Shown: positions 10,459-37,280, numbered from the stretch's first letter. The stretch: 64,000 nt of DNA from Candidatus Gottesmanbacteria bacterium (GCA_016218255.1 JACREN010000044.1:2489-66488), one strand, 5' to 3'. Numbers and translations are program-made. Notes: a model not told the origin generated them from the letters alone.

Positions 10459-10498
10459 TGTACAAAAGGGGTATTCATTTTACAATCAAACGGAATCT

Positions 10499-22449: not shown

Positions 22450-22464
22450 TGCTATAATACCACC

Positions 22465-23415
22465 ATGCAAAAAAGCAGTGTAAATCCGGAGCTGTCCGTT
22501 ATTATTCCTGTTTACAACGAAGAGCAATCACTTCCGATACTGCACAAAGAACTCATTTCGGCACTCGAAAAAATCGGGTACACTTTTGAAATCCTCTATG
22601 TAGATGATGGCTCTACGGATCGCTCCCAAAATATACTCAGACGATTAACAAATCCGCGAGTTCATCTCATTACATTTCGGGCCAACTTCGGCAAATCGGA
22701 AGCACTTGCTGTTGGTTTTAGAACTGTAAAAGGGCGATATATTATCACGATGGATGCGGATCTACAAGATGATCCAACACAAATCAAACTGCTACTCGAT
22801 AAACTCATTTGTGGATATGACCTAGTGAGTGGCTGGCGCGTAAAACGAGAAGATACAAAGACAAAAAAAATCTCAAGCTTTCTTTTTAATAGAGGGACAT
22901 CGCTCCTCTCGGGCGTGAACCTACATGATGCGAATTGCGGCCTGAAAATATTTACCAAAGAAGTAGCGGATCAGATATCGCTTTACGGTGAGCTCCATAG
23001 ATTCATTCCAATTCTGGCTGCCAAAAAGAAATTCCGTGTCGCTGAATTACCTATTCATCACCGCAAAAGAAAATTCGGTGTCTCCAAGTATGGCTGGGAA
23101 CGCGGTTGGCGTGGAATCATTGATTTATTTACCACTCTCTTTGTCACGGATTACGCTACAAAACCTGCACACTTCTTTGGAAAAATTGGACTTCTCCTTT
23201 TCATAATAGGATTTATCATGGACGGATATGTCACCGCTCTAAAAATATTCACCGGCACCACACAGGGAAGAATCCCTCTGTTTCTTGCTGGTATATTGTG
23301 TATGGTCCTCGGAGTACAACTGCTCTCAACAGGACTTATTGCGGAGATGATGACGTACTATTTCCTGCGCCGGAATCCAAAAACCACACCCGGGCACGGC
23401 GGACCTGAACAATAG
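22465..23415 (+). CDS. Family-2 glycosyltransferase, polyprenol-phosphate sugar synthase type (GtrB/ArnC-like) with C-terminal TM helices
   Basis: 316 aa with 'LSVIIPVYNEEQSL', 'VDDGSTDRS' and 'ITMDADLQDDP', plus two C-terminal hydrophobic helices. Confidence 0.8.
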   Translation: MQKSSVNPELSVIIPVYNEEQSLPILHKELISALEKIGYTFEILYVDDGSTDRSQNILRRLTNPRVHLITFRANFGKSEALAVGFRTVKGRYIITMDADLQDDPTQIKLLLDKLICGYDLVSGWRVKREDTKTKKISSFLFNRGTSLLSGVNLHDANCGLKIFTKEVADQISLYGELHRFIPILAAKKKFRVAELPIHHRKRKFGVSKYGWERGWRGIIDLFTTLFVTDYATKPAHFFGKIGLLLFIIGFIMDGYVTALKIFTGTTQGRIPLFLAGILCMVLGVQLLSTGLIAEMMTYYFLRRNPKTTPGHGGPEQ

Positions 23416-25387
23416 GGCACACATTGTCAATTTCTGAAAATAATCCAATCATTGACGCCTTATCTGCTGGAAACGAATAAGAAAGCGATGTATTCCCCAG
23501 AGTGTATGACCTGTCCCCATCACCCATTTGAGTAATAAGAAAATACGGACTGAACCATTTATCTCCGTTTGATGAAACGCCAATTTTTATATTTTCCGGA
23601 GGTATACACCCGTCATTATCGAAAATTAACTCCAATTTTGTAATCTTTACTTCCCGAAGCAGACGAATAATGAGATCTTTCCCTTCTAACGCAAATGCTA
23701 CTTCTTCCATTTGTTGATTACGATACTCTGATTTTATGTTGGCTGGATCATTTTTCCATATCGTCAGAACCGTAGTGCCGTCAACACGTACCTCATAAAC
23801 CGGTTTAAGAAAACGTTCCAAAAATGCCGGCTCGAAGTATCGAAGCGCTTCAAAATCCATAGAGGTAGCCTCCATGATATATTCACCGCGGTGCGCGTAT
23901 CCGCTCCATACACTATCATCAAATATGATATCCGAACGCAAAAATGGACGGGGCAACGCGGACGTTCCCCGATGAACAAGAGTCAGGCGGGCTCCCTGTT
24001 CTGCATACTGATTTAGCCACTGTGCGCCTTGACGATACACGCTACCGAGATCTTCACCGGCAGAAGGGATTCGCAATGCATAAGCCCCACGCAATCCTCC
24101 GATAAGTTCATTTACATAAAGCGTCTCATTGGGATGAATTCGGATAAGCTTCGCGCCAGCAATGACAAATCCTGCAAAAATGAGTATTAAAATCATCACA
24201 CGCCACATACCGGTCAATCTCCAAACTATAAAGCGAGCGCCATACCCCGCTAATAAGCAGAACGCTGGAATATATTCCATGAGAAGTCTTGCACCGCCGT
24301 ATATAGATGTTCCTGGCATGCTTGCGCGCACTATAGGAATCGTCATCCAAAGGATGAGAAGCGTACCGAGCGGAGACGTTCGTCTTATGGTGTATGCGAA
24401 CGCAGCAATAAACCCAATTCCCCCCAATGCAAGAATCACGAGCGGTGTTGTCAACCCGATCCACGCGAGAGGATAGCTATTAAAACCAAAAAATAAATAT
24501 GCCGGCTGATACGGTTGGTATGTTCCAATTGATACGTAATATCCCAATATTTTTTTGAGATGTTCAATTGGCGCCGTCCAAAGAAACGGCCAGGACAAAA
24601 AAAACAGGGAAACTGCAATGACGCCTGCAAATGGAAATAATACAATAATCTTAGTAAGATTTCTTTTTCTTTCGGGTCGTTGAATCAACCAATAATACAA
24701 AAACCACAACCCTGCAATAATCGGCAGAAACGCGCTATTTAATTTCGTAGCCAGCGCAAACCCCCAGGCGATGCCGGAAAAAACAAGAAGCTTCCGGGAG
24801 TTTTTCGTCACCGCACGGTAAAAAAGAAGTACCGCAATGCTGAAAAACACCGTGAGCGGCGGATCCTTCACGTTAAAATGCGTCTCTGCCAAAAAAATAG
24901 GGTAGAGAAAAAGAGACAAGCCGCTCACGATGCCAGCGAGTATTCCGATTTCCTGTATCGCGAACCACACAAGAATTCCAATAAATAAAGAGGACAGAAA
25001 AATTCCAAAAACACTGTACGCTTCAATATCTCCGAGAACGCCAAACACTTCATAAAAAATGGTATTGGCCGCGGCAAACAATATGCCATTGAGCGGCGGA
25101 TGTCCACTATCGTTGAAACGCCAATACTGGGCGGTCATGTTGGGCAACTGATACATTGACCTTCGAGGCAACTGCGGACTATTTCCGATTAGCGGCGATA
25201 AAAAATACGTCAGGTAAGCCTTTCCCCGAACATAATGTGCGGGATCGTCCCAACTGATCCCATAATGAGAAAGCGTCGATAAACCAACAGCAAAGAACAC
25301 GAAACTAAAAATTACTGCGATGAATATATCAAATCGTTTTTTCACGTCTGTTATTGTATTATATACGTATGAAACGGCTGATTCCAA
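23336..25387 (-). CDS. GT-C-type glycosyltransferase, PMT/ArnT-like, paralog of 33352..35397
   Basis: 683 aa. It has an N-terminal TM helix, then 'GISWDDPAHYVRGKAY' and 'NDSGHPPLNGILFAAA', matching the DE-loop plus 'HPPL' architecture of GT39/GT83. The ORF track start is a TTG; a GTG at 25345 is possible. Confidence 0.55.
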   Translation of the reverse strand: MESAVSYVYNTITDVKKRFDIFIAVIFSFVFFAVGLSTLSHYGISWDDPAHYVRGKAYLTYFLSPLIGNSPQLPRRSMYQLPNMTAQYWRFNDSGHPPLNGILFAAANTIFYEVFGVLGDIEAYSVFGIFLSSLFIGILVWFAIQEIGILAGIVSGLSLFLYPIFLAETHFNVKDPPLTVFFSIAVLLFYRAVTKNSRKLLVFSGIAWGFALATKLNSAFLPIIAGLWFLYYWLIQRPERKRNLTKIIVLFPFAGVIAVSLFFLSWPFLWTAPIEHLKKILGYYVSIGTYQPYQPAYLFFGFNSYPLAWIGLTTPLVILALGGIGFIAAFAYTIRRTSPLGTLLILWMTIPIVRASMPGTSIYGGARLLMEYIPAFCLLAGYGARFIVWRLTGMWRVMILILIFAGFVIAGAKLIRIHPNETLYVNELIGGLRGAYALRIPSAGEDLGSVYRQGAQWLNQYAEQGARLTLVHRGTSALPRPFLRSDIIFDDSVWSGYAHRGEYIMEATSMDFEALRYFEPAFLERFLKPVYEVRVDGTTVLTIWKNDPANIKSEYRNQQMEEVAFALEGKDLIIRLLREVKITKLELIFDNDGCIPPENIKIGVSSNGDKWFSPYFLITQMGDGDRSYTLGNTSLSYSFPADKASMIGLFSEIDNVCPIVQVRRARVWFLDSGAGNSTSSSPQ

Positions 25388-27123
25388 TGATTATTTCAAC
25401 CATTTGTACCCTCTTCTTGCTTGAGGCAACACTCCGTATTTTTTGGGTTCCAGCCAACCTTGATCCCCGCTTTAGAAGACACGATATCCAATGGATGGAG
25501 CAAAACGTCGTATACAATTCATACGGATATCGTGATGTCGAATATACCCAAGGAAAGCCGGCCAATATCTTTCGCATCTATAGCCTGGGCGACTCGTACA
25601 CCTTTGGCTGGTATCTGCCGGATACGAAAAATACCTACACGAAGCTTCTTGAACATGATCTGAACGAAAATCAACACATTGCCAGCCAAATCATAAACGC
25701 TGCTTCCCCAGGGTTTTCCATGAAAGAAGAAGTGGATCGCTTTATGGAAGAAGGACGGTACTTTAACCCGGATCTGGTAACGATTGGCCTAAACTATGGA
25801 GACTTTATCACCGTGGGCCAGTTCCCAAACATCATGCTGCCATTCCAAAATGAACTGAACAAATCGTATCTCTATCGGACATCAGTCGGCAGACTCATTC
25901 AAATCATCGAATCTAAACGCCGCCGCGAGTATCTTCTGAATATTTTCCAAAATCCCGACTCTCCGGACTGGAAAGAGGCAGAGAAACTCTTAGTACATCT
26001 TCAAAAAGAAACGGCAGCGATCAATGCAAAGCTCGTTATCGTCCTGTTTCCGCATCTTGATACGGGAAATCCCGACGGACCATATTTATATATACCCATG
26101 CACGAAAAACTTACCGCATTTGCCAAAGAGCACGATATCACACTCGTCGACCCGTTGCCCTTGTATAAAAAATATAAAGACAAGGAGAAACTTGTCCTCA
26201 ATCCCATCGACGCCCATCCGACTAACGAAGCGCATGTATTGGTGTTTCAGGCATTTTTGAGATCGTTTTCATTTTCTTCGTATATTGCGAGCCATCAACC
26301 GTACCAACCACGAAAATTTTCAGTTTCCGTCCGATCCGAACGAGATAGGCTGCCGGCATTCAAAAAAATATGGCATATTAAATCTTCTGATCCAGGTATC
26401 CCGTGGGTGTACATGAATGATGACCAATCAGTTAAAACCATACCCCTTATAGATGCTGCGGCGCGCCAATCACCCATTTATCAGGATACGCTGCAAATTT
26501 TTAAACCGTCTCAGCCCGGCCAGCCTGGCAATACCATCGGCGCGTCGATGAAATATCATATTCTGGCAAAAAATCAATCCCAAGGGCAAATCATAATTCC
26601 CACGATTCTTTACGGATATCCTGTGGTCGGCATAGAAAATATCCAGGGATTATATATAGAAAAACAAGGGGGTACGGTAAAAGAATTTATCACGCCAATG
26701 AATATAAATTTCACCCCACAACAGATCACAATTTTTTATAAACCTGCTGCGGATTACTATGTCTTCCAGCTGGAGCTTGCCGTTGCCGTCAAACAGCTCA
26801 CCGTCACGGCAGATGGCCGAATTGCATACATAACCAAAACATCCATCATCACATACCCAATGAAAAAATCCGATACCCGTATTTCCATCCCGATAGGTGC
26901 TCCAATTGTCGGACTCCCGCAATTTACGGATATGAATGACAGTTACTCGTACGTCATTGATAATGGGGTCTTAACGCGCCTCCAGGAAATACACGTTACG
27001 GACAATCAACTCGATCTGCAGTTTGTCCACCCGATACGCGCGAACGCCGAGATTTCCATTCCCGTGGAACTAGGATATACTATAGACAATAATGAAGTTC
27101 TGACGCTTGACCTTGAACAATGA
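25354..27123 (+). CDS. Membrane-anchored SGNH/GDSL-family hydrolase or acyl-esterase, with a C-terminal beta-rich domain of about 300 aa and unknown function
   Basis: 589 aa. SGNH blocks are 'YSLGDSYTFGW' (I), 'NAASPGFS' (II), 'GLNYGDF' (III) and 'IDAHPTNEAH' (V). It has an N-terminal TM helix. The ORF track start is a TTG; the first ATG is at 25369. Confidence 0.65.
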   Translation: MYYIRMKRLIPMIISTICTLFLLEATLRIFWVPANLDPRFRRHDIQWMEQNVVYNSYGYRDVEYTQGKPANIFRIYSLGDSYTFGWYLPDTKNTYTKLLEHDLNENQHIASQIINAASPGFSMKEEVDRFMEEGRYFNPDLVTIGLNYGDFITVGQFPNIMLPFQNELNKSYLYRTSVGRLIQIIESKRRREYLLNIFQNPDSPDWKEAEKLLVHLQKETAAINAKLVIVLFPHLDTGNPDGPYLYIPMHEKLTAFAKEHDITLVDPLPLYKKYKDKEKLVLNPIDAHPTNEAHVLVFQAFLRSFSFSSYIASHQPYQPRKFSVSVRSERDRLPAFKKIWHIKSSDPGIPWVYMNDDQSVKTIPLIDAAARQSPIYQDTLQIFKPSQPGQPGNTIGASMKYHILAKNQSQGQIIIPTILYGYPVVGIENIQGLYIEKQGGTVKEFITPMNINFTPQQITIFYKPAADYYVFQLELAVAVKQLTVTADGRIAYITKTSIITYPMKKSDTRISIPIGAPIVGLPQFTDMNDSYSYVIDNGVLTRLQEIHVTDNQLDLQFVHPIRANAEISIPVELGYTIDNNEVLTLDLEQ

Positions 27124-27290
27124 AGTGCTTTTTCGGCAAAATAAAAATTATTGGGGAGATATTTGAATTTCTTGGGCATGAACGGCTGTGGTGGCTCGCC
27201 CCGCCGATTATCATATTGCTCTTGTTTGGTCTTCTGTTTGTCCTGTCTCACGGTACGGTGCTTGCCCCATTTTTGTATCCACTATTCTGA
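27120..27290 (+). CDS. Tiny single-TM membrane protein (56 aa) of a family often found next to carbamoyltransferases
   Basis: The ATG at 27120 overlaps the stop of the SGNH gene (ATGA). The product is 'MKCFFGKIKIIGEIFEFLGHERLWWLAPPIIILLLFGLLFVLSHGTVLAPFLYPLF'. It is not called as such in the ORF track. Confidence 0.5.
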   Translation: MKCFFGKIKIIGEIFEFLGHERLWWLAPPIIILLLFGLLFVLSHGTVLAPFLYPLF

Positions 27291-27484
27291 TGAAGAAAAT
27301 TCTTGTTTTGATATCAGATATCCAAATGACGATTATTATGACGATATTTTACCTCGTCATACTTGCTCCCTTTTCACTATTTGTAAAAAGTAAAATTAAG
27401 CCTTTTAAGACAAAAAAAAAGAACAGCAATTGGGAGCGCATACATATTACTTCAAATAATAAAGATCTGATGAAACAATACTAA
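27290..27484 (+). CDS. Tiny single-TM membrane protein (64 aa)
   Basis: Its ATG shares one nucleotide with the preceding stop (TGATG). The product is 'MKKILVLISDIQMTIIMTIFYLVILAPFSLFVKSKIKPFKTKKKNSNWERIHITSNNKDLMKQY'. It ends 7 nt before the carbamoyltransferase start. Confidence 0.4.
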   Translation: MKKILVLISDIQMTIIMTIFYLVILAPFSLFVKSKIKPFKTKKKNSNWERIHITSNNKDLMKQY

Positions 27485-27491
27485 TGCACCC

Positions 27492-29273
27492 ATGAATATC
27501 CTTGGCATTTCCTGTGATTATCATGATAGTGCTGCAGTTCTCGTTCGCGATGGAATTCTGGTCTCCGCAGCCCAGGAAGAACGGTTCACCCGATTAAAAA
27601 ATGATTCCTCCATCCCGCGCCATGCCGTTGATTTCTGCCTTTCACAGGGTAACATCGGGCTGAAAGATATTGATCGGGTTGCTTTTTATGAAAAGCCGTT
27701 CCGAAAATTTCACAGAATTCTGCTCTCATCGTTAGCCACATATCCGGCTGGTCTGCCGTTTTTTGTCGCAGCTATGCGTTCGTTTCTTTTGGAGAAATTG
27801 TGGATCAAAAATAAAATCATTGAAGAACTACATATACCGGAAGACCGTGTCTCATTCGTCCCCCATCACATTTCCCATGGGGCATCAACATTTTTTGCAT
27901 CACCATACTGCGACGCAACCATCGTAACGATTGACGGTGTCGGAGAATGGGCGACCTCAACCATTGGAAAAGGAAAAGATAACAATATCACGGTAATGGC
28001 TGAACAGCAGTTTCCCCATTCTCTTGGGCTTCTTTACAGCACAATCACCGCGTTTTTGGGATTCGAGGTTAATGAGGGGGAATACAAAGTCATGGGCATG
28101 GCACCGTTTGGAAAACCAATATATGCTGACAAAATTTGGAAACTTCTCAACCTGTTTCCAGATAGCAGCTTTCGGTTAAACCTAGAATATTTTTCCTTTC
28201 AGATATCAGAAAGCAGTCCATATAGTTCAAAGCTTATTTCTCTGTTGGGCAAGCCCAGGGATCCCGGCAGTCACTTTTTCACCAAACGCTCCGGTTTTCC
28301 TTCATATTTTGGCAAAAAACCAGCCGACTACGCGAAGCGTTGTGAAGAAAATCAACACTTTGCCGACATTGCCGCATCGCTGCAATACGTAGCGGAGCAT
28401 ATCATATTTTCTGTTATTCGCCACGCCTACACGATAGCGCCATCAAAAAATCTGTGTCTCGCCGGGGGAGTTTTCTTAAACAGTGTCGCAAACGGCAAAC
28501 TTCAAAAAAATACTCCTTTCCAACATATCTATATCCAGCCGGCGGCAGGTGACGCAGGCGGCGCATTAGGCGCTGCGCTTTATGTAAACAGAACCGTATA
28601 TCAATCCAAGCCTTTTATCATGACTCACGCGTATTGGGGCAAAGAATTCTCGGAAACAGAAATATTGCACGCAGCAAAATCATATAATCTCTCCTTTCGA
28701 AAAATACGCAATACGCGCAAACTCAACACAGTCATCATCAATGCGATAATGAATGAAAAAGTCGTCGGCTGGTTTAACGGGCGAAGCGAATGGGGTCCGA
28801 GGGCTTTGGGCAATCGAAGTATTCTGGCAGATCCCAGAGATCCCGCCATAAAGGATATTGTCAATACAAAAATAAAGTTCCGTGAGCCATTCCGTCCGTT
28901 CGCTGCTTCTGTTCTCGCCGGACATGAACATGAAATATTCGATATACCTGCTTCTCCGGGTTTACCCATCAATTTTATGCTCTGCGTGTATCCGGTCAAT
29001 AAGAAATGGCGTAAAAAAATTCCTGCAGTCACGCACGTCAACGGAACCAGCAGACCCCAGGTCGTCAACAAAAAAGATAATAAACGCTACTGGGAGCTTA
29101 TCAACGATTTTTATAAAAAAACCGGTGTGCCATTGCTATTGAATACATCGTTTAACATCAAAGGCGAACCGATCGTGAACACCCCGACTGATGCCATACA
29201 AACATTCCTCACAAGTGAACTCGATCTGTTAGTCATGGGAAATTTCATTATAACAAAACAATCAAATAGCTGA
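27492..29273 (+). CDS. O-carbamoyltransferase of the NodU/CmcH/TobZ family
   Basis: 593 aa. 'ILGISCDYHDSAAVLVRDGILVSAAQEERFTRLKNDSSIPRHAVDFCL' is the hallmark N-terminus of the family. A YrdC-like C-terminal region is present. Confidence 0.85.
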   Translation: MNILGISCDYHDSAAVLVRDGILVSAAQEERFTRLKNDSSIPRHAVDFCLSQGNIGLKDIDRVAFYEKPFRKFHRILLSSLATYPAGLPFFVAAMRSFLLEKLWIKNKIIEELHIPEDRVSFVPHHISHGASTFFASPYCDATIVTIDGVGEWATSTIGKGKDNNITVMAEQQFPHSLGLLYSTITAFLGFEVNEGEYKVMGMAPFGKPIYADKIWKLLNLFPDSSFRLNLEYFSFQISESSPYSSKLISLLGKPRDPGSHFFTKRSGFPSYFGKKPADYAKRCEENQHFADIAASLQYVAEHIIFSVIRHAYTIAPSKNLCLAGGVFLNSVANGKLQKNTPFQHIYIQPAAGDAGGALGAALYVNRTVYQSKPFIMTHAYWGKEFSETEILHAAKSYNLSFRKIRNTRKLNTVIINAIMNEKVVGWFNGRSEWGPRALGNRSILADPRDPAIKDIVNTKIKFREPFRPFAASVLAGHEHEIFDIPASPGLPINFMLCVYPVNKKWRKKIPAVTHVNGTSRPQVVNKKDNKRYWELINDFYKKTGVPLLLNTSFNIKGEPIVNTPTDAIQTFLTSELDLLVMGNFIITKQSNS

Positions 29274-29648
29274 GGCAAATGTATCAGGTTTGGCCTGATC
29301 AAGGGGCTCATTCACAAACGCGAGAAGAAACATTTCTCCCTGGCCGATATTTTCCAGCTTATGCGCGACACCAGCAGGCACAGCGACCATGGTCGGTTTA
29401 TCTCCACTGACCACAACCTCCTCACGCTCATGCGTTTTCAAATCTTCAAATGAAATTTTTGCTTTCCCTTTAATAATGAGAAACCATTCTTGTTTTTTAG
29501 TATGAAAGTGCTGACCGCGTACAACCCCTTTCTTCGAATATGACACAAAGAAATGCTTCATCGCGCGGGATAAAAACGGATATTCGTTCTGTACGAGCCA
29601 GCCGCGTTCATCACGCCGAACTTTCAGAGGATACGTATCTATTTTCAT
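29262..29648 (-). CDS. Cupin sugar-nucleotide 3,4-ketoisomerase-like protein (FdtA/WxcM-C-like)
   Basis: 128 aa with 'ERGWLVQNE' and 'VRGQHFHTKKQEWFLIIKGKAKI', containing the His pair typical of FdtA-type isomerases. Confidence 0.65.
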   Translation of the reverse strand: MKIDTYPLKVRRDERGWLVQNEYPFLSRAMKHFFVSYSKKGVVRGQHFHTKKQEWFLIIKGKAKISFEDLKTHEREEVVVSGDKPTMVAVPAGVAHKLENIGQGEMFLLAFVNEPLDQAKPDTFASAI

Positions 29649-30640
29649 ATCCAGCCCGTTTTTTTCAAAAGTCTAATAATAGCATTCCGATCCATAAAAT
29701 TACCCGCTAAGTCCGTACGATATTCATTATATTTTTTCCGCAATCCGGAAACTCTTTCTCCATACGGGTAAATAACGAAATAATCATTCCTTTCGACTGC
29801 GCGATGCATTTCCTCTTCTGAAACTAAGGCTTCATACAACTGTTCCCCTTCTCGGGAACCAATCCTTTTCATAGGATATTCTTCTCTACCAGTCAAAGCT
29901 TTGCTCATGACAGCGGCTATATCTGTGATTCGAGCAACCGGCATCTTTTTTACAAAAATTTCTCTTCCTTTTCCTTCTGTGGTCGCTGTAAATACTAAAT
30001 CCATAGCGTCTTCTAAGCTGATCAGGAATCGGGTCATATCAGATTCTGTAATGGTCAAAGGTTCTTTTTTATCAATCTGATCTTTAAAAAGCGGCACCAC
30101 GCTACCCCGGCTTCCCACAACATTGCCGAAACGGACACACGTAAATAATGTTTTATCGGTTTTATGAGCAAACAGCAGAATTCTTTCCTGAATGGCTTTT
30201 GTCATTCCCATGACATTTACTGAACGGACTGCTTTATCAGTGCTAATTGCTATGACCTTTTGCACGCCGTTTTGGATAGCGGCTTCCCGCAAGTTAAAGG
30301 CGCCATGAACATTTGTATATACCGCTTCCATAGGATTTTCTTCACAAATCGGCACATGCTTCATCGCAGCGGCATGATAGATAATATCCACTCCGCGGCA
30401 CGCAGCCAGCAATGTAGAAAAATTTCGTACATCACCGATGGAAAATGTAAGGCGATCGGCAAACGCTGACAGATCGCGACGCAATATGTGCTGTTTCCAT
30501 TCATCCCGGGAAAACACAATGATCTTCCGTGGGGAGAATTTCAAAAGATGCCGTACTAAATATTCTCCAAAGCTCCCCGTCCCTCCCGTGACGAGCACTG
30601 TTTTATCATTAAAAAACTCTGCCATCGCTAACGTGTTCAT
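29645..30640 (-). CDS. UDP-GlcNAc 4,6-dehydratase (PseB/PglF/CapD short-form family)
   Basis: 331 aa with 'KTVLVTGGTGSFGEYLVRHLL' and 'IIVFSRDEWKQ'. It is a paralog of 17951..19006. Confidence 0.8.
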   Translation of the reverse strand: MNTLAMAEFFNDKTVLVTGGTGSFGEYLVRHLLKFSPRKIIVFSRDEWKQHILRRDLSAFADRLTFSIGDVRNFSTLLAACRGVDIIYHAAAMKHVPICEENPMEAVYTNVHGAFNLREAAIQNGVQKVIAISTDKAVRSVNVMGMTKAIQERILLFAHKTDKTLFTCVRFGNVVGSRGSVVPLFKDQIDKKEPLTITESDMTRFLISLEDAMDLVFTATTEGKGREIFVKKMPVARITDIAAVMSKALTGREEYPMKRIGSREGEQLYEALVSEEEMHRAVERNDYFVIYPYGERVSGLRKKYNEYRTDLAGNFMDRNAIIRLLKKTGWI

Positions 30641-31725
30641 AGTGCTTTCTCAATAAATTCCGCAATAAAGTGAATCTGTTTTTTTGTAATCTTCGGATGA
30701 ACCGGCAGCGAAAGCGCTTCCCGGCTTAATTGCTCTGCAATCGGAAAGTTGCCGCGAAACCCGCGTACAAGCAGTTCCTTTTGCTGATGAATGGGTACGG
30801 GATAATAGATCCCATATCCTATGCCTGCACCGTCAAATGCGTGAATGAGCGTCTGTCTATTTTTTTCTTTTTGCTCTCTTACGCGTATCGTATATTGATG
30901 ATACACGTGCTGCACGCATCCCGCAACGACGGGCGTAACAAGCTGAGGCATATCACTCAATAGCTCATTATAGTACGCAGCATGCTCTCTTCGAATCTTA
31001 TTAAACCGATCAAGTTTGGCAAGTTGTACCAGACCCAATGCGGCCTGCATTTCCGTCATTCGCATATTATAACCTAAAAAATCATGATAATATCGAACTC
31101 GACCACCGTGGCTTCTAGCCATCTTCGCATAATCATTAATATCCTTATCGTCCGTCACAATCATGCCTCCCTCACCGGTTGTCATATTTTTGGTCGCGTA
31201 AAATGAAAAACAACCAATATCCCCAATAGATCCTGCCTTTTTGCTTTTGTATATGGCTCCATGGGCTTGGCAAGCATCTTCTATGATCTTCAGATCGTGA
31301 CGTCTGGCGACGTCCCGGATTATGTCCATATCACAAACATTTCCAAATAAATGAACCGGCAAAATTGCCTTTGTTCGTTTGGTAATTTTTTCTTCTATCT
31401 TTCCTGCGTCAATATGAAAGTCTTTACCAATATCGACAAACACCGGCGTTGCACCCACATACAAAATCGCGTTGGTCGAAGCGATAAAACTATAGGGGGT
31501 CGTTATCACCTCATCACCCGGACCGATGCCAAGAGCAAGAAGAGCAATATGAAGAGCTACCGTGCCATTTGCCACCGCAACCGCATACCCCGAACCCATA
31601 TAGGAAGCAAATTGCTTTTCAAAAGCCGCCACCGTTTCCCCTTGTGCCAATTGTCCGGAGCGCAGGACCTTGACCACCGCCTGCTCTTCCTCATGGGTAA
31701 AAGAAACATGAGTAATAGGAATCAT
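30637..31725 (-). CDS. DegT/DnrJ/EryC1-family sugar aminotransferase (PglE/PseC-like)
   Basis: 362 aa with 'AVANGTVALHIALLALG' and the catalytic Lys in 'FSFYATKNMTTGEGG'. Confidence 0.85.
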   Translation of the reverse strand: MIPITHVSFTHEEEQAVVKVLRSGQLAQGETVAAFEKQFASYMGSGYAVAVANGTVALHIALLALGIGPGDEVITTPYSFIASTNAILYVGATPVFVDIGKDFHIDAGKIEEKITKRTKAILPVHLFGNVCDMDIIRDVARRHDLKIIEDACQAHGAIYKSKKAGSIGDIGCFSFYATKNMTTGEGGMIVTDDKDINDYAKMARSHGGRVRYYHDFLGYNMRMTEMQAALGLVQLAKLDRFNKIRREHAAYYNELLSDMPQLVTPVVAGCVQHVYHQYTIRVREQKEKNRQTLIHAFDGAGIGYGIYYPVPIHQQKELLVRGFRGNFPIAEQLSREALSLPVHPKITKKQIHFIAEFIEKAL

Positions 31726-32282
31726 ATAGATATTTCAGCTTTACACACAGGGCACATCTGCCCTACCCCCTTTTTCACGAGCTTTGCTCCACAAAGACAG
31801 ACATATCCATGCGCGCGGGCAGGATTTCCATATACCAGGCTATGTCGAGCAACATCTCTTGTCACTACTGACCCAGCGCCTATCATCGCCCATTCTCCGA
31901 TAGTTACCCCTGGAACGATAACGCTACCCGCTCCCACAGATGCACCTCGCTTCACCACCGTCTTGGTTACTACCCAATCCTTGACTCCCTTTGGTTTCTC
32001 TTTTGGTGTCACGGCACGGGGCACTTTATCATTCGCAAAACATACGTGAGGACCCACAAACACTCCGTCTTCTATAGTAACACCCACATAAATCGACACG
32101 TAATTACCTATCTTACAATTATTGCCAACTATAACATCATGATCAATATACACGCCTTTTGCGATAATGCAACTGTTGCCCAATCTCGCATGCTCGCGTA
32201 TTTGTGCGTGATGCCAAATTTTAGTTCTTTCTCCAATATGGGCATTTTTGCTTACCTCCGCAGTTGGGTGAATATATATCAT
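31722..32282 (-). CDS. Left-handed beta-helix (hexapeptide-repeat) N-acetyltransferase (PglD/WbpD-like) with a C-terminal Cys4 tail
   Basis: 186 aa with imperfect hexapeptide repeats, for example 'IGERTKI', 'IREHARLGNSCII' and 'VIVGNNCKIGNYVSI'. The C-terminus reads 'VCLCGAKLVKKGVGQMCPVCKAEISI'. Confidence 0.8.
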   Translation of the reverse strand: MIYIHPTAEVSKNAHIGERTKIWHHAQIREHARLGNSCIIAKGVYIDHDVIVGNNCKIGNYVSIYVGVTIEDGVFVGPHVCFANDKVPRAVTPKEKPKGVKDWVVTKTVVKRGASVGAGSVIVPGVTIGEWAMIGAGSVVTRDVARHSLVYGNPARAHGYVCLCGAKLVKKGVGQMCPVCKAEISI

Positions 32283-33355
32283 AACGTATTATAAAAAAAA
32301 TCGACAACAACGTCACTTGGCCGACTCGTAACTTGCTTGTGACGGCGTAGTCTCCTGTACGAATTCAAAAACCAAACAACTCTCCTCATTTCCAACTTCG
32401 ACAAGTAAGCAGTCTCCCCAATGCCAATATCCTGTTCAATAACTTCTCTTAAAATAAGCATTGGAGTATTGAGAACAAACGTTTCTGTCTGCAACCCACC
32501 GCTGTCAGAAGCTACAAACTGACTGTGTCTGACTGCATGCATAAAATCAACATAATCAAAAAGATAACTGGTAACGAGCGGAAACTTACGTTTTAGCTCC
32601 AATATAGTCTGCCAAACTCCCTGCTTTTTAAGCTCAAAAACAGTATTGGTATGGATCGGCCATATGACGATAAACCCTCGGCGCAAAATTTCCTCCAATA
32701 TTCGGATAATGCGATGCAACCTTTCTTTGTTGAATAAATTTTCTTTTCTATGAAACGTAATGAGTACATATTTTTTTCCAAAAAATTGCTTTATCTTATT
32801 TGACGGTGGTCTTTGCAAAGCCAGTCTCGCCGAATCCAACGCCGTATTTCCGTTGGTAATGAAAATACTCTGCTTTCTCTTGATTGTGTCTGCGTCTCTC
32901 TGATATGGACAAAAACTAATATCGCTATACCTGGATACGACCGTTCGGGTAATCTCCTCAGGAAATGGTTCAAAAAAATTCCAACTGCGAATTCCGGACT
33001 CCAGATGCACGATGCGCGCACCAAACCATTTTGCAATGAGAAAACCCAAAATAGTTGACTCTGCGTCTCCATGGATAAGAACGTAATCATGTTTGGTTAT
33101 AGGAAGCTTACGCGCATTCCACAGCACATGAGGCGCCCAACACAACAGTTCCCAGATATTTGCAAGGTCCCTTTTTTTCATCGTCAGGTAGATATCCGGC
33201 TTGCGAATTCCCAATCTTTTTCTGGTATTTTCTATGATATGATAATGTTGACATATATGTATAAACTGATAGGGTACCCGACGCTTATCAAGCCCCTGCA
33301 TAACAGGAAACGTCTTCATGAATTGTCCCTTTGTGCCGATGAGTATATATATCAT
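32279..33355 (-). CDS. UDP-N-acetylglucosamine 2-epimerase family protein, second copy; a hydrolysing NeuC/LegG-like role is possible
   Basis: 358 aa with 'IVHLESGIRSWNFFEPFPEEITR' and 'FVASDSGGLQTE', which are epimerase_2 motifs. Confidence 0.65.
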   Translation of the reverse strand: MIYILIGTKGQFMKTFPVMQGLDKRRVPYQFIHICQHYHIIENTRKRLGIRKPDIYLTMKKRDLANIWELLCWAPHVLWNARKLPITKHDYVLIHGDAESTILGFLIAKWFGARIVHLESGIRSWNFFEPFPEEITRTVVSRYSDISFCPYQRDADTIKRKQSIFITNGNTALDSARLALQRPPSNKIKQFFGKKYVLITFHRKENLFNKERLHRIIRILEEILRRGFIVIWPIHTNTVFELKKQGVWQTILELKRKFPLVTSYLFDYVDFMHAVRHSQFVASDSGGLQTETFVLNTPMLILREVIEQDIGIGETAYLSKLEMRRVVWFLNSYRRLRRHKQVTSRPSDVVVDFFYNTL

Positions 33356-35352
33356 AATTTCTCTATTCCCTTAGGTCCATAAACACGAACTTGAATATAG
33401 GAAAGTATACAAGAAAGGAAATCGTTTGGAACGATATCGATCATTCGTGCCATTGTAGCCGGAAAAAAATAATACCATGTATTTGGCTTAAAATAAAATT
33501 TTTGATATTGCCCATAGATGCTTTTGAAAAACCGCATATCCTCCTCCATTCTTATTAAGTTCTCCCCATCAGCAATATATTGTACCCCGCCGTCATCCGC
33601 TTTGCTACAGTCCAACGTGTTGTGATCGACCTCTATTCGCGTTATTATTCTTAATCTGTCGAGACGAATTTTTATAAATCCTTCGTTTCGACCGCCTGTG
33701 ATGTCCACATTTGGAATAATCATCTCATTTGAAAGTTCAGGTTTAAAATATGTCGCCTCATTTTTCCAAATTTTCAAAACGGGTATGCCTTCAACGCTGA
33801 TTATATCGACTGGATTCATCATTTGATTTAAATAGAGAAAGTTATATCGCGGCGGCGGAAAATCTACCGACACCATTTCCATCATGTATTCCCCCTCATG
33901 TCTTAATGCAGAAAAATATGCACCAAATCGTATATCCTTCCGGATATACTGCCCTGGAATATTCGAAAGCAGCCCAACAGGCAAACCGACTCGGGCGTTC
34001 TGTTCTGCATGTTTATTAAGCCACCTGATGCCCTGCAGATATACATTTCCCATGGATTCCGCGGCTCCGGGAATCTTGTGTGCAACCGCACCGGATACAC
34101 CGCCAATCAGACTATTAAGAAATAAATTCTCATTCGGATGCATGCGCATCATCGTCAAAAGCGTTGGGACAAACAATAATACAATGACGACCGAAGAAAA
34201 AAATCTGCGCCCTGTTATTTTCACTAGCACTTCTCTACATATATGTGCGCCAAACCCTGTCAACAATACAAGAGCAGGTAAGTATTCCAAAATCTGCCTG
34301 ACGCCGCTATAAATGGATGCGCCCGGCCACATCACCCGCACGATCGGCACGCATAACCAAAATACCACCAGCCAGACAAACCGGCTCTTCTCCTTAAAAC
34401 GACCAGTCAATACTCCAACAAATCCAACAACCGCAAAAAGCAAAGAAACCAGCGGCGTTGATATAACGACAAAAAAGGGTGGATACATATTCCACCCGTA
34501 AAAAAGAAACGACGGCTGATTGGCATTGCCCGTACCTATTCCCTTGTAATACATGATTGTATCCCGCAGTCTTCCGATCGGATCAGACCAAAGATATGGC
34601 CAGGACGAGTAAAAAATCAAAAAAACGATAGCAGGAAAAAGCAAAAAAGACAAAATCATTCTCCGTGTAAAAAAGCGCGTTGGCCGGCAAATAATAAGAT
34701 AGGGCAGCAGCATAAAAGGAACAAAAACAATATTAAATTTTGTTGATAAAGCTAATCCGCATAAAAACGCAGACCACAGCAGCAGAGACGCTTTATTTTT
34801 CGTTATCCCGAGGTAAAAAAAATATACAGTTCCGGCAAAAAATGCGGTTTCTACCGGATCTTTGATATTAAAGCGTGATTCTCCCAAAAAAAGTGGGTAA
34901 AGGGCAAGGGCTAGGGCCGCGATACCTCCAGCAAACGCCCCAAGCGTGTCCCGCCCCATCACAAATACAAGAAACACCAATAAACCGGCAACAAGTACTT
35001 CAAACGCGTGATATGATTCCAAATCTCCCATAATTCCCAACTTCTCATAAAGTATCCGGTTGCTTAATGCAGCAATAATTCCGTTTAGAGCTGGATGCCC
35101 ACCGTCATTTTTCAGAAAATATTGCCCATTGTATTGCTGAATCTTCCATGCGCTTACTCTCGGTCCAATCAAATTCGATGGACGGTAAGAATACTGGCCA
35201 GTCGTCAATAAGTGTAAATATGCCTGACCACGAATAAAATGAATCGGCTCATCAATATTGATGCCGTAATCAGAAAGCGTCGCAACACCCACAACAAAAA
35301 AAACCATCGCTATAATTATTCCCCCAAAATACCGGATTATAAAATTTTTCAT
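33352..35352 (-). CDS. GT-C-type glycosyltransferase, PMT/ArnT-like, paralog of 23336..25387
   Basis: Motifs 'GINIDEPIHFIRGQAY' and 'DGGHPALNGIIAAL', with the same length and architecture as the paralog. The ORF track extends to 35397. The ATG at 35352 gives an ATGA overlap with the GT4 gene ending at 35349. Confidence 0.55.
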   Translation of the reverse strand: MKNFIIRYFGGIIIAMVFFVVGVATLSDYGINIDEPIHFIRGQAYLHLLTTGQYSYRPSNLIGPRVSAWKIQQYNGQYFLKNDGGHPALNGIIAALSNRILYEKLGIMGDLESYHAFEVLVAGLLVFLVFVMGRDTLGAFAGGIAALALALYPLFLGESRFNIKDPVETAFFAGTVYFFYLGITKNKASLLLWSAFLCGLALSTKFNIVFVPFMLLPYLIICRPTRFFTRRMILSFLLFPAIVFLIFYSSWPYLWSDPIGRLRDTIMYYKGIGTGNANQPSFLFYGWNMYPPFFVVISTPLVSLLFAVVGFVGVLTGRFKEKSRFVWLVVFWLCVPIVRVMWPGASIYSGVRQILEYLPALVLLTGFGAHICREVLVKITGRRFFSSVVIVLLFVPTLLTMMRMHPNENLFLNSLIGGVSGAVAHKIPGAAESMGNVYLQGIRWLNKHAEQNARVGLPVGLLSNIPGQYIRKDIRFGAYFSALRHEGEYMMEMVSVDFPPPRYNFLYLNQMMNPVDIISVEGIPVLKIWKNEATYFKPELSNEMIIPNVDITGGRNEGFIKIRLDRLRIITRIEVDHNTLDCSKADDGGVQYIADGENLIRMEEDMRFFKSIYGQYQKFYFKPNTWYYFFPATMARMIDIVPNDFLSCILSYIQVRVYGPKGIEKL

Positions 35353-36413
35353 ACAGATAATAAAACCCCTAACGCCTTCCGGGCCGCCAGATTCCAACTT
35401 CTTCTTTTTGCCTGAACAAGTGCGCCCATCTGCAACACTCTGTATAACTTCTTATCCTGTAATACACGAATCGCTTCACGAGCAAGTGAATCTGGATTCG
35501 GCGCAGTTAGTATGCCGCTCGTTCCATCCATTACGACATCCCGTACTCCCGATACATTATATGCAATCGTTGGGGTACGCACGAGTCCGGCCTCACTCAC
35601 CACCAACCCCCAACCCTCATGAATAGAAGGAAATAAAAGCAAATGAGCCTTTGCCAAAAAGGAAAATTTCTTTGTTTCAGATACCTTACCAAAAAAACGC
35701 ACCGAGTTTTTTCTCCAATGTGATTTTATCGGTCCTTCACCAATCACCCAAAAGTTGGCTTCTGGAAAATGATTTTTGACAAGATCAAAAGCCAATAGAG
35801 CGTCCTCCGTACCTTTTTGTTTATTGATTCTCCCCAAATACACCAACGTTGGATTATTTTCTTTTTTTGTTTTTGGTAGATGTCGAGGCATATCTACACC
35901 CAATGGAATAACTGTAATTCCTCGATCATTGAACCCTTCAGCGATAAGATCGTCCTTTGTTGATTTTGAAATTGTTATAGTCGGAACATTTCGGTACAAA
36001 TAGAAATATATTCTTTCAATCCAACGTCCCAATGCAGCCAAGGGCTTAGGAAACAAAACCGGAAAAAGTTTTTTGGCTACTTCACACGCCAAAAGTACTG
36101 TCTTATTACCTGCATAGAATACTGCAAAAAATGGATACCAATGCACTTCATCTATTACTACATCTGTAGCTTTTTTGAATCGAAAAAAATAATACCAAAC
36201 TGCCAATGCATGCACATTCCACCATCGGCCTCGCCGAAATATTCTCACCCCGTCAATATATTCATCGGGCAAACTTCCCCGATAACCGGCACAAAAGACA
36301 GTAACACTATGTCCCCAGATCACCCAGCGCTTTGCGAGTTCATGCGTGAGTCTTTCAGCACCCCCACCAGCCGGATTTTTGATATCACGCCAATTGAGAA
36401 TGAGGATTCGCAT
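35349..36413 (-). CDS. GT4 (GT-B fold) glycosyltransferase
   Basis: 354 aa with 'MRILILNWRDIKNPAGGGAERLTHELAKRW' and C-terminal 'LFPSIHEGWGLVVSEAGLVRTPTIAYNVSG'. Confidence 0.75.
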   Translation of the reverse strand: MRILILNWRDIKNPAGGGAERLTHELAKRWVIWGHSVTVFCAGYRGSLPDEYIDGVRIFRRGRWWNVHALAVWYYFFRFKKATDVVIDEVHWYPFFAVFYAGNKTVLLACEVAKKLFPVLFPKPLAALGRWIERIYFYLYRNVPTITISKSTKDDLIAEGFNDRGITVIPLGVDMPRHLPKTKKENNPTLVYLGRINKQKGTEDALLAFDLVKNHFPEANFWVIGEGPIKSHWRKNSVRFFGKVSETKKFSFLAKAHLLLFPSIHEGWGLVVSEAGLVRTPTIAYNVSGVRDVVMDGTSGILTAPNPDSLAREAIRVLQDKKLYRVLQMGALVQAKRRSWNLAARKALGVLLSV

Positions 36414-36419
36414 GGGACT

Positions 36420-37280
36420 TTAGCCAATATTAATGCGGAAATTTAGCTCCGGATCATATCGCCATTGCTGACTGTTTAAATTGTCGTAGTACCGTAAAAT
36501 TTTCAGCCGATAAAATACAGCCGCGGTATCCCACAGCATATGATAAATAATATTCCATAAGTTAGCGGATGTAATGCTAGAAGCTCCCGAAAAATCCAGT
36601 TCAACCGGCGCTTCAAAAATCCGACGATACCCTAAATGATGCGCCACTGCCAAAATTTCGATATCAAAGGCAAACTCTTTCACCAACAGCCTCGGCAACA
36701 CATCCTCTAGAACCTTCCGCCGAAAAAGTTTCATTCCCACTTGTGAATCACGGATGTTAAGACCAAACATAACACGTACTACCATTTGATACCCCCACGA
36801 CAACAGCGTTCGGGAAAAAGGATAATGCACTTTTGATACCGGATGCCTCTTGCTTCCGATAATAATATCCGCGTTGTACCAGCGGTAATGTTCCAAAAAC
36901 ATGGATACCCCTTCTGCCCGAATATCGCTTCCGGCATCCAAAAATGCAATCACATCACCCTTGGCTCTGGCCATACCGTAACGCACCGCATATCCCTTTC
37001 CGTGATTATGCTCATATCCTACGACGACGATATGTTTTCTGACAAGCTTACGTGCCCGCGCATATGTCTGATCCTCTTTTCCATCCACAACCACAATGAG
37101 TTCATAGGGAATTTTTATATGCACAAGAGATGCATCAATTTGCCGGATATCTTGCTCTATGCTCTTTGACTGTTTATAAGCGGGAATGATAACGGAGAGC
37201 AATTTTGGATCGTGCTGCATAGGCGTAATATAGCAAAAGCACGCCCAAAAGAGAAGCTGTAACAGCCAATGATACACCAA
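36420..37280 (-). CDS. Family-2 glycosyltransferase
   Basis: 'LSVIIPAYKQSKSIEQDI', 'VVVDGKEDQT' and 'FLDAGSDI'. Its 5' end overlaps the upstream flippase gene by up to 107 nt, so the start is uncertain. Confidence 0.7.
   Translation of the reverse strand: MVYHWLLQLLFWACFCYITPMQHDPKLLSVIIPAYKQSKSIEQDIRQIDASLVHIKIPYELIVVVDGKEDQTYARARKLVRKHIVVVGYEHNHGKGYAVRYGMARAKGDVIAFLDAGSDIRAEGVSMFLEHYRWYNADIIIGSKRHPVSKVHYPFSRTLLSWGYQMVVRVMFGLNIRDSQVGMKLFRRKVLEDVLPRLLVKEFAFDIEILAVAHHLGYRRIFEAPVELDFSGASSITSANLWNIIYHMLWDTAAVFYRLKILRYYDNLNSQQWRYDPELNFRINIG

Follow-up and report, generated by a model that had tools for sequence, protein, structure and literature searches.

Gene content of the locus

We analyzed a 64,000-nucleotide stretch of DNA (hereafter the window) from Candidatus Gottesmanbacteria, an uncultivated lineage of the CPR. 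Two of its genes, referred to as paralogs A and B, encode polytopic glycosyltransferases and flank a group of sugar-modification genes. The features of this region are as follows.

21865..22449, plus strand: DUF5667 protein (Pfam DUF5667, 1.5e-08) with a TM helix at its N terminus; the gene immediately precedes that of the GtrB-like GT2
22465..23415, plus strand: GtrB/ArnC-like GT2 (Pfam Glycos_transf_2, 3.8e-31) with two C-terminal TM helices (segments at 234-270)
23336..25387, minus strand: paralog A, GT-C (PMT_2) glycosyltransferase, GtrB-proximal, assigned to the accessory lineage
25354..27123, plus strand: GDSL/SGNH protein of 589 aa (Pfam Lipase_GDSL_2, 4.4e-08) with one N-terminal TM helix
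27120..27290, plus strand: DUF5989 small membrane protein of 56 aa (Pfam DUF5989, 2.4e-16)
about 27188/27290..27484, plus strand: small 2-TM ORF of ~64 aa (ORF listing and hydropathy), between the DUF5989 and carbamoyltransferase genes
27492..29273, plus strand: NodU/CmcH-type O-carbamoyltransferase (Pfam Carbam_trans_N, 4.7e-71; Carbam_trans_C, 1.2e-68)
29262..33355, minus strand: five-gene nucleotide-sugar module downstream of B (Pfam, NCBIfam), made up of the next five entries
29262..29648, minus strand: cupin, WbcJ/CapF C-terminal-like (NCBIfam WbcJ C-terminus, 2.7e-22)
29645..30640, minus strand: PseB-like 4,6-dehydratase (NCBIfam PseB, 4.6e-94)
30637..31725, minus strand: PseC-like aminotransferase (NCBIfam PseC, 1.1e-99)
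31722..32282, minus strand: NeuD/PglD-like hexapeptide N-acetyltransferase (NCBIfam NeuD/PglB/VioB, 1.6e-31)
32279..33355, minus strand: WecB-like 2-epimerase (NCBIfam WecB, 3.6e-46)
33352..35397, minus strand: paralog B, GT-C (PMT_2) glycosyltransferase, GT4-proximal, assigned to the core lineage
35349..36413, minus strand: GT4 glycosyltransferase (Pfam Glycos_transf_1, 1.8e-28), directly upstream of B
36420..37280, minus strand: GT2_286, 286 aa, no TM helix (Pfam Glycos_transf_2, 6.4e-20)
37174..38430, minus strand: Wzx-like protein of 418 aa with 12 TM helices (12 hydrophobic segments)

Paralog A comprises 683 codons from the first TTG (NCBI start GTG at 25345, giving 669 aa) and paralog B 681 codons (NCBI start ATG at 35352, giving 666 aa). 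The original prediction had placed A back-to-back with an SGNH-hydrolase/carbamoyltransferase operon and a GtrB-like GT2, and both neighbours are present as described. The GT2 gene and A are convergent and overlap tail-to-tail by 80 nt, and the GDSL/SGNH gene, whose likely start is the ATG at 25369 and whose product is predicted to be membrane-anchored, diverges head-to-head from A. B had been said to follow a GT4 and a diacetamido-sugar module; the GT4 gene does precede it, with a stop codon overlapping the start codon of B, but the module comes after B in the direction of transcription.

The best NCBIfam matches of the GtrB/ArnC-like GT2 were ArnC (1.6e-49), PgfS (3.1e-37) and AglJ (2.5e-26), all under the equivalog cut-offs and thus informative at class level only; judging from its sequence, this protein is a candidate polyprenyl-phosphate sugar synthase supplying a lipid-linked donor. 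GT2_286 shows weak similarity to such synthases (PpgS, 2.9e-12; ArnC, 4.3e-12) and is a possible second donor synthase. The five-gene module, whose NCBIfam scores (PseB, PseC, NeuD/PglB/VioB, WecB and WbcJ) are all under equivalog cut-offs, is co-transcribed with B as part of a variable cassette and plausibly makes UDP-2,4-diacetamido-2,4,6-trideoxyhexose. The carbamoyltransferase matched NodU (1.9e-43, under the cut-off), and the small 2-TM ORF ending at 27484 gave no significant Pfam match. The 418-aa protein had no Pfam or NCBIfam match of its own; its positional homologs in two related loci (L004 and L077; 28-30% identical) carry PF01943 (Polysacc_synt), and we regard it as a candidate flippase of the Wzx/MOP type that belongs to the conserved core.

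Sequence and fold of the paralogs

BLASTP aligned residues 22-663 of A with residues 24-671 of B at 37% identity and 55% positives over 664 columns; with E = 5e-126, this full-length similarity is far beyond chance, and among the 52 ORFs of the window the two proteins match only each other. The N-terminal strings quoted in the original prediction, GISWDDPAHYVRGKAY in A and GINIDEPIHFIRGQAY in B, both lie after TM1, and the GHP(P/A)LNG element reported with them is present as 'GHPPLNG' at residue 95 of A and 'GHPALNG' at residue 100 of B. By domain, identity is 42% in the TM region, 44% in the periplasmic domain and 23% in the C-terminal domain.

Both proteins score above the curated gathering threshold of Pfam PMT_2 (PF13231; 26.1 bits), with 42.9 bits for A and 50.0 bits for B. 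At E <= 0.01, Pfam returned PMT_2 only, with no PF02366, MIR or PMT_4TMC match; PF02366 is present in some relatives. NCBIfam has no family for A and matches B only to Agl23 (3e-07, far under its cut-off), with no ArnT match for either. AF2 models (pLDDT 90.9 for A and 89.8 for B) share a three-domain layout, in which a membrane part with 11 predicted TM helices is joined by an alpha/beta domain in the periplasm and, at the C terminus, by a CBM32-like beta-sandwich. Fold comparison shows that the helices of the polytopic N-terminal domain are arranged as in GT-C_A. The earlier notion of paired PMT/ArnT-like paralogs of about 680 aa is thereby borne out by the alignment, the PMT_2 match and the GT-C fold. 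These results support genuine paralogy of A and B over their full length, as enzymes of the PMT/ArnT (GT-C) type; the two are most likely ancient paralogs within a single PMT_2/ArnT-like glycosyltransferase family.

The C-terminal domain, assigned from structure alone, has the beta-sandwich fold of CBM32 and F5/8 type C (discoidin) modules. Pfam F5_F8_type_C (PF00754) matched the C-terminal 140 aa of A weakly (E = 0.15) and B not at all, and three relatives (P0063, P0106 and P0188) have precomputed PF00754 matches. Short family members stop at 'IWKN' and carry no CBM-like module. The sandwich is most likely a fast-evolving domain braced by two invariant cysteines (C580/C643). With 11 TM helices, an N terminus rich in K/R and these two cysteines, the modelled topology is consistent with an outward-facing C-terminal domain.

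None of the solved GT-C sequences is significantly similar to A or B (E > 0.1). Compared with ArnT (GT83) of Cupriavidus metallidurans (PDB 5EZM/5F15), A and B show ~14% identity (a sequence match that is not significant), 11 predicted TM helices versus 13, a different periplasmic domain and an added CBM32-like module; the monoderm CPR cell is not known to have lipid A. Residues kept in at least 95% of 81 family members include D33, H37, R40, H82, D161, K201, R353, E357 and C580/C643. An acidic motif occupies the first extracytoplasmic loop after TM1, as WDDP in A and IDEP in B. A DD/DE motif in this loop and a D158-K203 pair are described ligand-binding and catalytic sites of the GT-C/PMT clan (PMC7801869). 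The 'DD/DE-P' element of A and B appears to be the clan's catalytic first-loop aspartate motif, and in a profile alignment the invariant D161 and K201 fall on ArnT chain positions 161 and 206, which correspond to native D158 and K203 (chain offset +3). Because the sequence matches are insignificant (E 0.56 for the ArnT profile alignment alone), these motif equivalences to solved GT-C enzymes come from an alignment that draws its support from fold similarity.

NCBI labels the family 'GT39 family', a family-level name with no demonstrated activity behind it. GT39 enzymes transfer mannose from polyprenyl- or dolichyl-P-Man to protein Ser/Thr, and they are recognised by PF02366, by MIR domains within the large luminal loop and by a PMT_4TMC domain at the C terminus. 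A and B might accordingly be PMT-like O-glycosyltransferases that use polyprenyl-P-sugar donors to modify secreted proteins such as S-layer proteins or pilins. We find this improbable, as A and B, unlike Pmt1/2/4, have no detectable MIR domain in the large loop, carry a C-terminal domain of carbohydrate-binding-module fold instead of PMT_4TMC, and are encoded inside a polysaccharide-type locus with Wzx-like, GT2 and GT4 genes.

Fold matches of A and B to STT3/AglB almost equal those to ArnT in strength, and the two proteins could conceivably use a Wzx-flipped polyprenyl-diphosphate oligosaccharide, either as an STT3/PglB-like oligosaccharyltransferase or as a repeat-unit ligase or polymerase. 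The hallmark of GT66 enzymes (STT3/PglB/AglB) is a WWDxG motif in the soluble domain. A regex search found neither WW[DE].G nor a related STT3-type motif in A or B, which by sequence belong to PMT_2 and not to STT3. Moreover, their most conserved neighbour is a putative polyprenyl-monophosphate sugar synthase, and several other polytopic proteins of the window, none assigned to a function, could serve as polymerase or ligase. We therefore consider such a role very improbable.

Conservation of gene neighbourhoods

We surveyed gene context in 60 species-representative loci of at least 12 kb each. GT4_354-like genes were found in 58% of them, GtrB-like GT2 in 53%, GT2_286 in 45% and Wzx-like genes in 43%; GDSL genes occurred in 2/60, WecB-like in 1/60, Hexa in 3/60 and distant carbamoyltransferase genes in 4/60. 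Among 78 family members, a GtrB-like GT2 is the commonest immediate downstream neighbour (20) and a GT4 the commonest immediate upstream one (13). Retention of the sugar and SGNH/carbamoyltransferase modules is limited to the nearest relatives, namely L001 and L076, with 62% and 78% identity to A, and L002, with 67% identity to B. GDSL/SGNH orthologs adjoin A orthologs in L001 (51%) and L076 (75%), and L001 also has the DUF5989 gene at the matching place and a 68-aa gene in place of the small 2-TM ORF. The diacetamido module is present in L001 and L002 and missing from L003. Synteny with the adjacent modules is thus largely not conserved elsewhere. With their genes in only 1-4 of 60 loci, we find no support for the diacetamido module as defining B, or for the SGNH/carbamoyltransferase operon as defining A.

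The locus L003, whose B ortholog is 52% identical, is colinear with the window for ~9 genes per side, and holds only a GT4 and a methyltransferase gene at the position of A and the cassette. Since this colinear locus is without A and the cassette, A and B delimit a variable cassette within a single conserved locus; they are its two ends rather than parts of two separate sub-clusters. A single DegT gene separates B and A in L005. In L077, decayed and fragmented PseB/PseC/Hexa remnants lie upstream of a B-type gene; its GtrB-adjacent copy is 44% identical to A (463 bits) versus 38% to B (355 bits), and its GT4-side copy is 49% identical to B.

In the NJ tree, internal branches are very short outside the A and B clades. 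Members of the A clade (window, L001, L005 and L076) are GtrB-adjacent in every case, and GT2_286 and GT4_354 almost always precede those of the B clade; the GT2_286 proteins of L002 and L003 are 81-86% identical to that of the window. The GtrB-DUF5667 pair also occurs in L003, L004, L005, L039, L056, L059, L076 and L077. These data support assigning A and B to two separate lineages that each conserve a characteristic gene context. The conserved partners of A-type copies are the convergent GtrB-like synthase and DUF5667, whereas B-type copies follow Wzx-like, GT2 and GT4 genes, the GT4 at 35349..36413 being a conserved partner of the B lineage. Comparison across genomes thus upholds lineage-specific contexts for the two paralogs, but confines synteny with the adjacent modules to the closest relatives.

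Each paralog may transfer a differently decorated sugar, as first suggested from their placement. Specifically, each would serve the sugar of its own adjoining module, with B transferring a 2,4-diacetamido-trideoxyhexose and A a sugar that is O-carbamoylated or O-acyl-edited and made with the help of the SGNH/carbamoyltransferase operon and the GtrB-like GT2. In favor of this, the genes of the modules lie close against A and B and are partly co-transcribed with them, and their arrangement is kept in L001, L002 and L076. Additionally, GDSL-like genes lie directly upstream of other-clade family members in L018, L050 and L054, and two candidate donor synthases are near: the GtrB-like GT2 adjoins A, and GT2_286 lies two genes ahead of B. 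However, B-clade orthologs in L003, L004, L019, L026, L039 and L059 have no diacetamido module, the remnants in L077 are fragmented and upstream of the B-type gene, and the WecB-like, Hexa, GDSL and carbamoyltransferase genes are rare across the 60 loci. Relative to L003, the module shares its indel with A and stands outside the conserved context of B. Furthermore, donors of this GT-C clan are lipid-phosphate-linked and not nucleotide sugars, which GT-C enzymes do not take directly, so an adjacent nucleotide-sugar module does not itself specify the donor. On balance, such dedication of each paralog to its module is rather unlikely.

Proposed role and relation to known systems

We favor, with a probability of roughly 0.68, the reading that A and B bound one conserved surface-glycan locus in which a GT-C gene was duplicated around a cassette, and that both enzymes transfer sugars from polyprenyl-P-sugar to a glycan outside the cytoplasm. 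The locus order would be Wzx-like, GT2, GT4, GT-C, convergent GtrB-like GT2, DUF5667, GT2 and onward. In the window lineage, the GT-C gene would have been duplicated, with a variable cassette of ~8.5-10 kb between the copies, in which genes for the SGNH protein and for the carbamoyltransferase plus its small membrane partners join the diacetamido-sugar module. Cytoplasmic enzymes would make the nucleotide sugars, the GtrB/ArnC-like GT2 would place a sugar on polyprenyl phosphate, the lipid-linked sugar would be flipped to the other side of the membrane, and A and B would pass it to a cell-surface glycan at the outer face. Transfer would proceed through the first-loop Asp (D33) and the D161/K201 pair, and the CBM-like domain may assist in holding the glycan acceptor. 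B would be the core enzyme of the locus and A an accessory copy moving with the variable region and probably contributing an additional or alternative residue on a side branch. The data document the homology and fold of A and B, the conservation of motifs, synteny specific to each lineage and variability of the cassette; we infer the donor class, the extracytoplasmic site of action, a glycan as acceptor and how A and B divide the labour.

Multi-component systems combining a GT-A enzyme, a flippase and a GT-C enzyme include GtrA/GtrB/GtrC, CsbB/GtcA/YfhO, GacI/GacK/GacL and ArnC/ArnE-F/ArnT (PMC8035078). As in these, a GtrB/ArnC/PgfS-type GT2 with C-terminal TM helices adjoins a polytopic GT-C whose soluble domain is predicted to face outward, and the genes belong to a locus for cell-wall or surface glycans; a Wzx-type flippase candidate is close by, which recalls the Gac system. 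Unlike these systems, the 64-kb window encodes no GtrA-type flippase, and it has no unlisted small multi-TM ORF besides the 2-TM ORF ending at 27484. The locus also differs in having two GT-C paralogs, which form a distinct PMT_2 subfamily without an NCBIfam model, and in its CPR host, whose 64-kb stretch carries at least 15 GT-C-like genes. Since these at least 15 GT-C-like membrane proteins face ~5 candidate polyprenyl-P-sugar synthases in the window, the proposed link between A and the neighbouring GtrB-like gene is positional.

A GT-C enzyme whose C-terminal CBM binds the acceptor polysaccharide has a precedent in GT136 ORF12 of Citrobacter youngae O1/O2 (PMC11127046). Like ORF12 and EmbC/AftD, A and B join a GT-C membrane domain to a C-terminal beta-rich module of carbohydrate-binding type, and the short family members without it parallel the dispensability of the ORF12 CBM. 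In contrast to these enzymes, A and B belong to another GT-C family, their CBM fold class is CBM32/discoidin-like, and the candidate donor synthase is a GtrB-like GT2 and not a phosphoribosyl-type synthase. We see the whole arrangement as a routine variant of an established glycosylation scheme.

The family is common in Microgenomates and nearly confined to them, comprising 1084 clusters at 50% identity (E <= 1e-30). More tentatively, and with the odds against it, these ~670-aa proteins may found a GT-C family that is new and restricted to the CPR, and would then be the signature enzymes of the principal Microgenomates locus for surface glycans, which would contain a diversification hotspot. 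If so, that hotspot would lie between the GT4-proximal and the GtrB-proximal copy, where cassettes for sugar modification would be exchanged, as would additional GT-C copies whose CBM32-like domains evolve rapidly. This would give rise to strain-specific surface glycans, which may be relevant to host attachment or phage evasion in Microgenomates episymbionts.

Two paralogs in a CPR-restricted GT-C subfamily

Genes A and B belong to a CPR-restricted, uncharacterised GT-C subfamily of a GtrB/GT-C-type scheme, and they are duplicated around a variable sugar-modification cassette. Both are real open reading frames, annotated by NCBI on a 67.8-kb Candidatus Gottesmanbacteria contig as 'glycosyltransferase family 39 protein':

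23336..25387 (-), gene A, 683 codons (669 aa as annotated)
33352..35397 (-), gene B, 681 codons (666 aa as annotated)

As the original prediction held, the two proteins are paralogs: BLASTP aligns them at 37% identity over 664 columns (E = 5e-126), and the N-terminal strings and GHP(P/A)LNG element cited for them are found in both. Neither matches any other protein among the 52 ORFs of the window by BLASTP. PMT_2 is the sole above-threshold Pfam family in each, with no MIR or PMT_4TMC domain detected, and no NCBIfam model covers the family. Our literature search turned up no publication that treats this family or the glycan loci of Microgenomates. The 'GT39' name overstates what is known, implying protein O-mannosylation without evidence. 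A role as PMT-like protein O-glycosyltransferases is improbable given the polysaccharide-type gene context, the missing MIR domain and the CBM fold of the C-terminal domain.

Sequence searches with A, B or the family profile returned no significant PDB-chain match (best E 0.1-0.56), and the link to solved GT-Cs came only from fold comparison. The AlphaFold models (pLDDT 90.9 for A and 89.8 for B, from input alignments of 47 and 45 sequences) share a three-part layout of an 11-helix membrane domain (~1-403), an alpha/beta domain (~404-541) and a C-terminal beta-sandwich (~542-660). The B model has an additional helix inside the beta-sandwich (residues ~606-620, pLDDT about 51-60), an insertion absent from A. 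In a profile alignment whose sequence similarity is itself not significant, D161 of the invariant FN(I/V)KD and K201 of TKFN superpose on ArnT D158 and K203, and the WDDP/IDEP element of the original prediction is the first-loop DD/DE motif. Both kinds of site have been described for the GT-C/PMT clan as catalytic or ligand sites (PMC7801869). Conservation across 81 members reaches at least 95% at D33, H37, R40, H82, D161, K201, R353 and E357 and at two C-terminal-domain cysteines; since these family-wide residues are present in both A and B, both look active from their sequences. We also considered one copy as a decaying duplicate and rejected this, as both are full-length, keep all family-invariant residues and give confident models.

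The C-terminal domain probably faces outward, a placement in keeping with the 11 TM helices and with the invariant cysteine pair. A and B are 42-44% identical over their membrane and periplasmic domains but 23% identical over the C-terminal domain, a pattern that fits diverged acceptor recognition, although relaxed constraint would yield the same. Only 17 positions are differently fixed between the A and B clades, none of them in the C-terminal domain, which is variable even inside clades, so that clade-fixed positions do not locate the specificity determinants. When the C-terminal domains were searched by themselves, Pfam gave no significant match.

The family comprises 1084 clusters (50% identity) at E <= 1e-30 in a profile search of 1.84 billion representatives, and a scan of species-representative genomes gave 71 loci. 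Loci with a stated lineage come almost entirely from Microgenomates/Patescibacteria MAGs, including Gottesman-, Levy-, Woese-, Davies-, Blackburn- and Shapirobacteria; many others are merely titled 'uncultured Gammaproteobacteria'. Two or more members lie less than 10 kb apart in 32% of loci, and short members of ~540 aa stop at a conserved IWKN, without the beta-sandwich.

A variable cassette between conserved flanks

The original prediction placed A and B in two distinct sugar-modification sub-clusters. Its neighbour identities stand, but B does not follow the sugar module; the transcription order is GT4, B, sugar module. Moreover, the modules that were to define the sub-clusters are the variable part of one locus. 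The interpretation as a whole is partly supported. We named ORFs of all family-bearing loci by their best BLASTP match to window ORFs, built an NJ tree and counted neighbours. The recurrent backbone runs GT4, small PMT_2 protein, (GT2), Wzx-like, GT2_286 and GT4_354, followed by the GT-C family member(s), a convergent GtrB-like GT2, DUF5667, GT2_291, FnlB-like and GT4.

Frequency of window neighbour genes among 60 loci of at least 12 kb
GT4_354: 58%
GtrB-like GT2: 53%
GT2_286: 45%
Wzx-like: 43%
Distant carbamoyltransferase: 4/60
Hexa: 3/60
GDSL: 2/60
WecB-like: 1/60

The deciding comparison is with L003, a locus carrying a single B-type gene. Gene order there matches the window over ~9 genes upstream of B and ~10 genes past the GtrB-like gene, and the interval between these flanks holds only a GT4 and a methyltransferase, whereas the window equivalent spans ~10 kb with WecB-like, Hexa, PseC-like, PseB-like, cupin, carbamoyltransferase, two small ORFs, GDSL and A. 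Elsewhere the interval is in flux: a single DegT gene separates B and A in L005, while L002 has a different gene order and an extra B-clade copy. In L077, upstream of the B-type GT-C (7754-9978), fragments of a hexapeptide acetyltransferase (73 aa), a PseB-like protein (44 and 94 aa) and a GT4 (106 aa) surround an intact PseC-like gene, apparently a decaying copy of the diacetamido-sugar module. Together with the L003 colinearity, this flux indicates that A and B stand on either side of a variable cassette in one conserved locus. That each paralog instead serves the sugar of its adjacent module, as originally proposed, is unlikely, as those modules are not conserved in L003 or in the 60-locus counts.

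The A clade consists of the window copy, L001 (62% identical to A), L076 (78%) and L005 (47%), always with the convergent GtrB-like gene next; a divergent GDSL gene precedes the A ortholog in L001 and L076. The B clade holds the window copy, L002 (two copies), L003, L004, L005, L019, L026, L039 and L059, with GT2_286 and GT4_354 nearly always upstream. The copy on the GT4 side in L077 shows 49% identity to B, and the short GtrB-adjacent copy is nearer A (44%, 463 bits) than B (38%, 355 bits).

At the A end, the coding regions of A and the convergent GtrB-like GT2 overlap by 80 nt (23336-23415), compared with 35 nt in L001 and ~77 nt in L076, and the final ~10 residues of A are predicted to be disordered. 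A and the GDSL gene diverge from likely starts at GTG 25345 (-) and ATG 25369 (+), with ~23 nt between them; their L001 orthologs are 35 nt apart. A promoter-like TTGGAA-18-TATAAT for A lies at 25387..25358, just upstream of its annotated start and within the extended GDSL ORF. The scan of 21000-37500 barely exceeded shuffled background (47 vs 37 promoter-like and 25 vs 16 terminator-like sites), and operons were not defined from it.

Several details of the cassette were also observed. The stretch 27120-27484, which separates GDSL from carbamoyltransferase, encodes a DUF5989 protein (56 aa, E 2.4e-16) plus a small 2-TM ORF, as in L001; this small-membrane-protein/carbamoyltransferase pairing is a conserved unit. 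In the distant genomes L018, L050 and L054, a GDSL/SGNH-like gene (29-34% identical) lies co-directionally, directly upstream of a family member from another clade, a tentative pointer to an SGNH/GT-C functional link that recurs independently of carbamoyltransferase. The cupin (29262-29648) resembles the C-terminal half of WbcJ/CapF-type reductases (2.7e-22), and the matching SDR half is the 271-aa FnlB-like protein (20172-20987) of an FnlA/FnlB/FnlC-like set (16833-20987). These halves lie 8 kb apart in the window and adjoin in L003, so cassette insertion seems to have driven the parts of a split reductase away from each other.

Donor supply and proposed mechanism

The GtrB-like gene adjoining A encodes two C-terminal TM helices and has its best NCBIfam matches to ArnC, PgfS and AglJ, which are polyprenyl-phosphate glycosyltransferases. 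This candidate synthase and a GT-C partner have the layout of multi-component transmembrane glycosylation systems (PMC8035078). From this neighbour and layout we infer a polyprenyl-monophosphate donor: A and B would move a sugar from it onto a surface glycan at the membrane's outer face. The CBM32-like domain may aid acceptor binding, a role shown for CBMs in the GT136 enzyme ORF12 and in EmbC/AftD (PMC11127046). An oligosaccharyltransferase (STT3-type) or polymerase activity ranks lowest among the alternatives, given that the WWDxG motif was not found in A or B and that the conserved neighbour is a monophosphate-sugar synthase.

Because the window holds ~5 candidate polyprenyl-P-sugar synthases (22465, 1349, 38438, 36423, 11297) against at least 15 GT-C-like proteins, these enzymes must share donors, and the paralogs need not differ in donor. 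In the single-copy genomes L003, L039 and L059, the B-type gene is one or two genes away from the GtrB-like gene. That gene's product probably supplied the donor for the ancestral enzyme, and A has the look of an accessory copy brought with the variable region. Two DUF5667 proteins, at 21865-22449 (+) and 47857-48372 (-), each have one N-terminal TM helix and adjoin a GT2. The GtrB-like/DUF5667 pair is kept in many Microgenomates loci, which suggests that DUF5667 is an unrecognised partner of the donor synthase.

The surrounding glycan island

The 52 ORFs (222-63230) form one nearly gap-free glycan island, whose sole gap above 60 nt is 27124-27491; tRNA and Rfam scans across the window gave no matches. 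About 20 of the proteins are polytopic membrane proteins, at least 15 of them GT-C-like, including:

13107-14486, 39126-40226, 53316-54935, 54935-56554 and 57816-59297, PMT_2 proteins
41216-42790, 49130-50722, 59290-60912 and 60753-63227, YfhO-like proteins

Other paralog sets are the trios 50719/53313/54932 and 41213/49127/59290, the pair 9052/13104, three DegT genes and two Polysacc_synt_2 genes. At 225-13107, an Arn/Pgf-like set comprises a DegT aminotransferase, a GT2, an SDR, a nucleotidyltransferase, a formyltransferase, a further GT2, a second DegT and three large membrane proteins without assignment (705, 980 and 468 aa). The set possibly represents a second lipid-linked amino-sugar (formamido?) pathway, with two members detailed here:

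1349-2374, PgfS/ArnC-like GT2 (PgfS 3.5e-66), two C-terminal TM helices
10499-11329 (+), formyltransferase

CPR/Patescibacteria are ultrasmall, mostly uncultivated episymbionts, and to our knowledge their surface chemistry is essentially unknown. Gottesmanbacteria are known for very small genomes, and this one spends at least 63 kb, gapless, on glycan synthesis. The finding is useful rather than surprising, because the scheme of a GtrB-like synthase with a GT-C partner is already well known, and it would gain weight only should this locus turn out to be what chiefly determines how surface glycans vary among Microgenomates. As conserved ends of a widespread locus with a replaceable cassette, A and B offer a handle for comparing surface-glycan variation among Microgenomates and help in picking candidates for heterologous characterisation.
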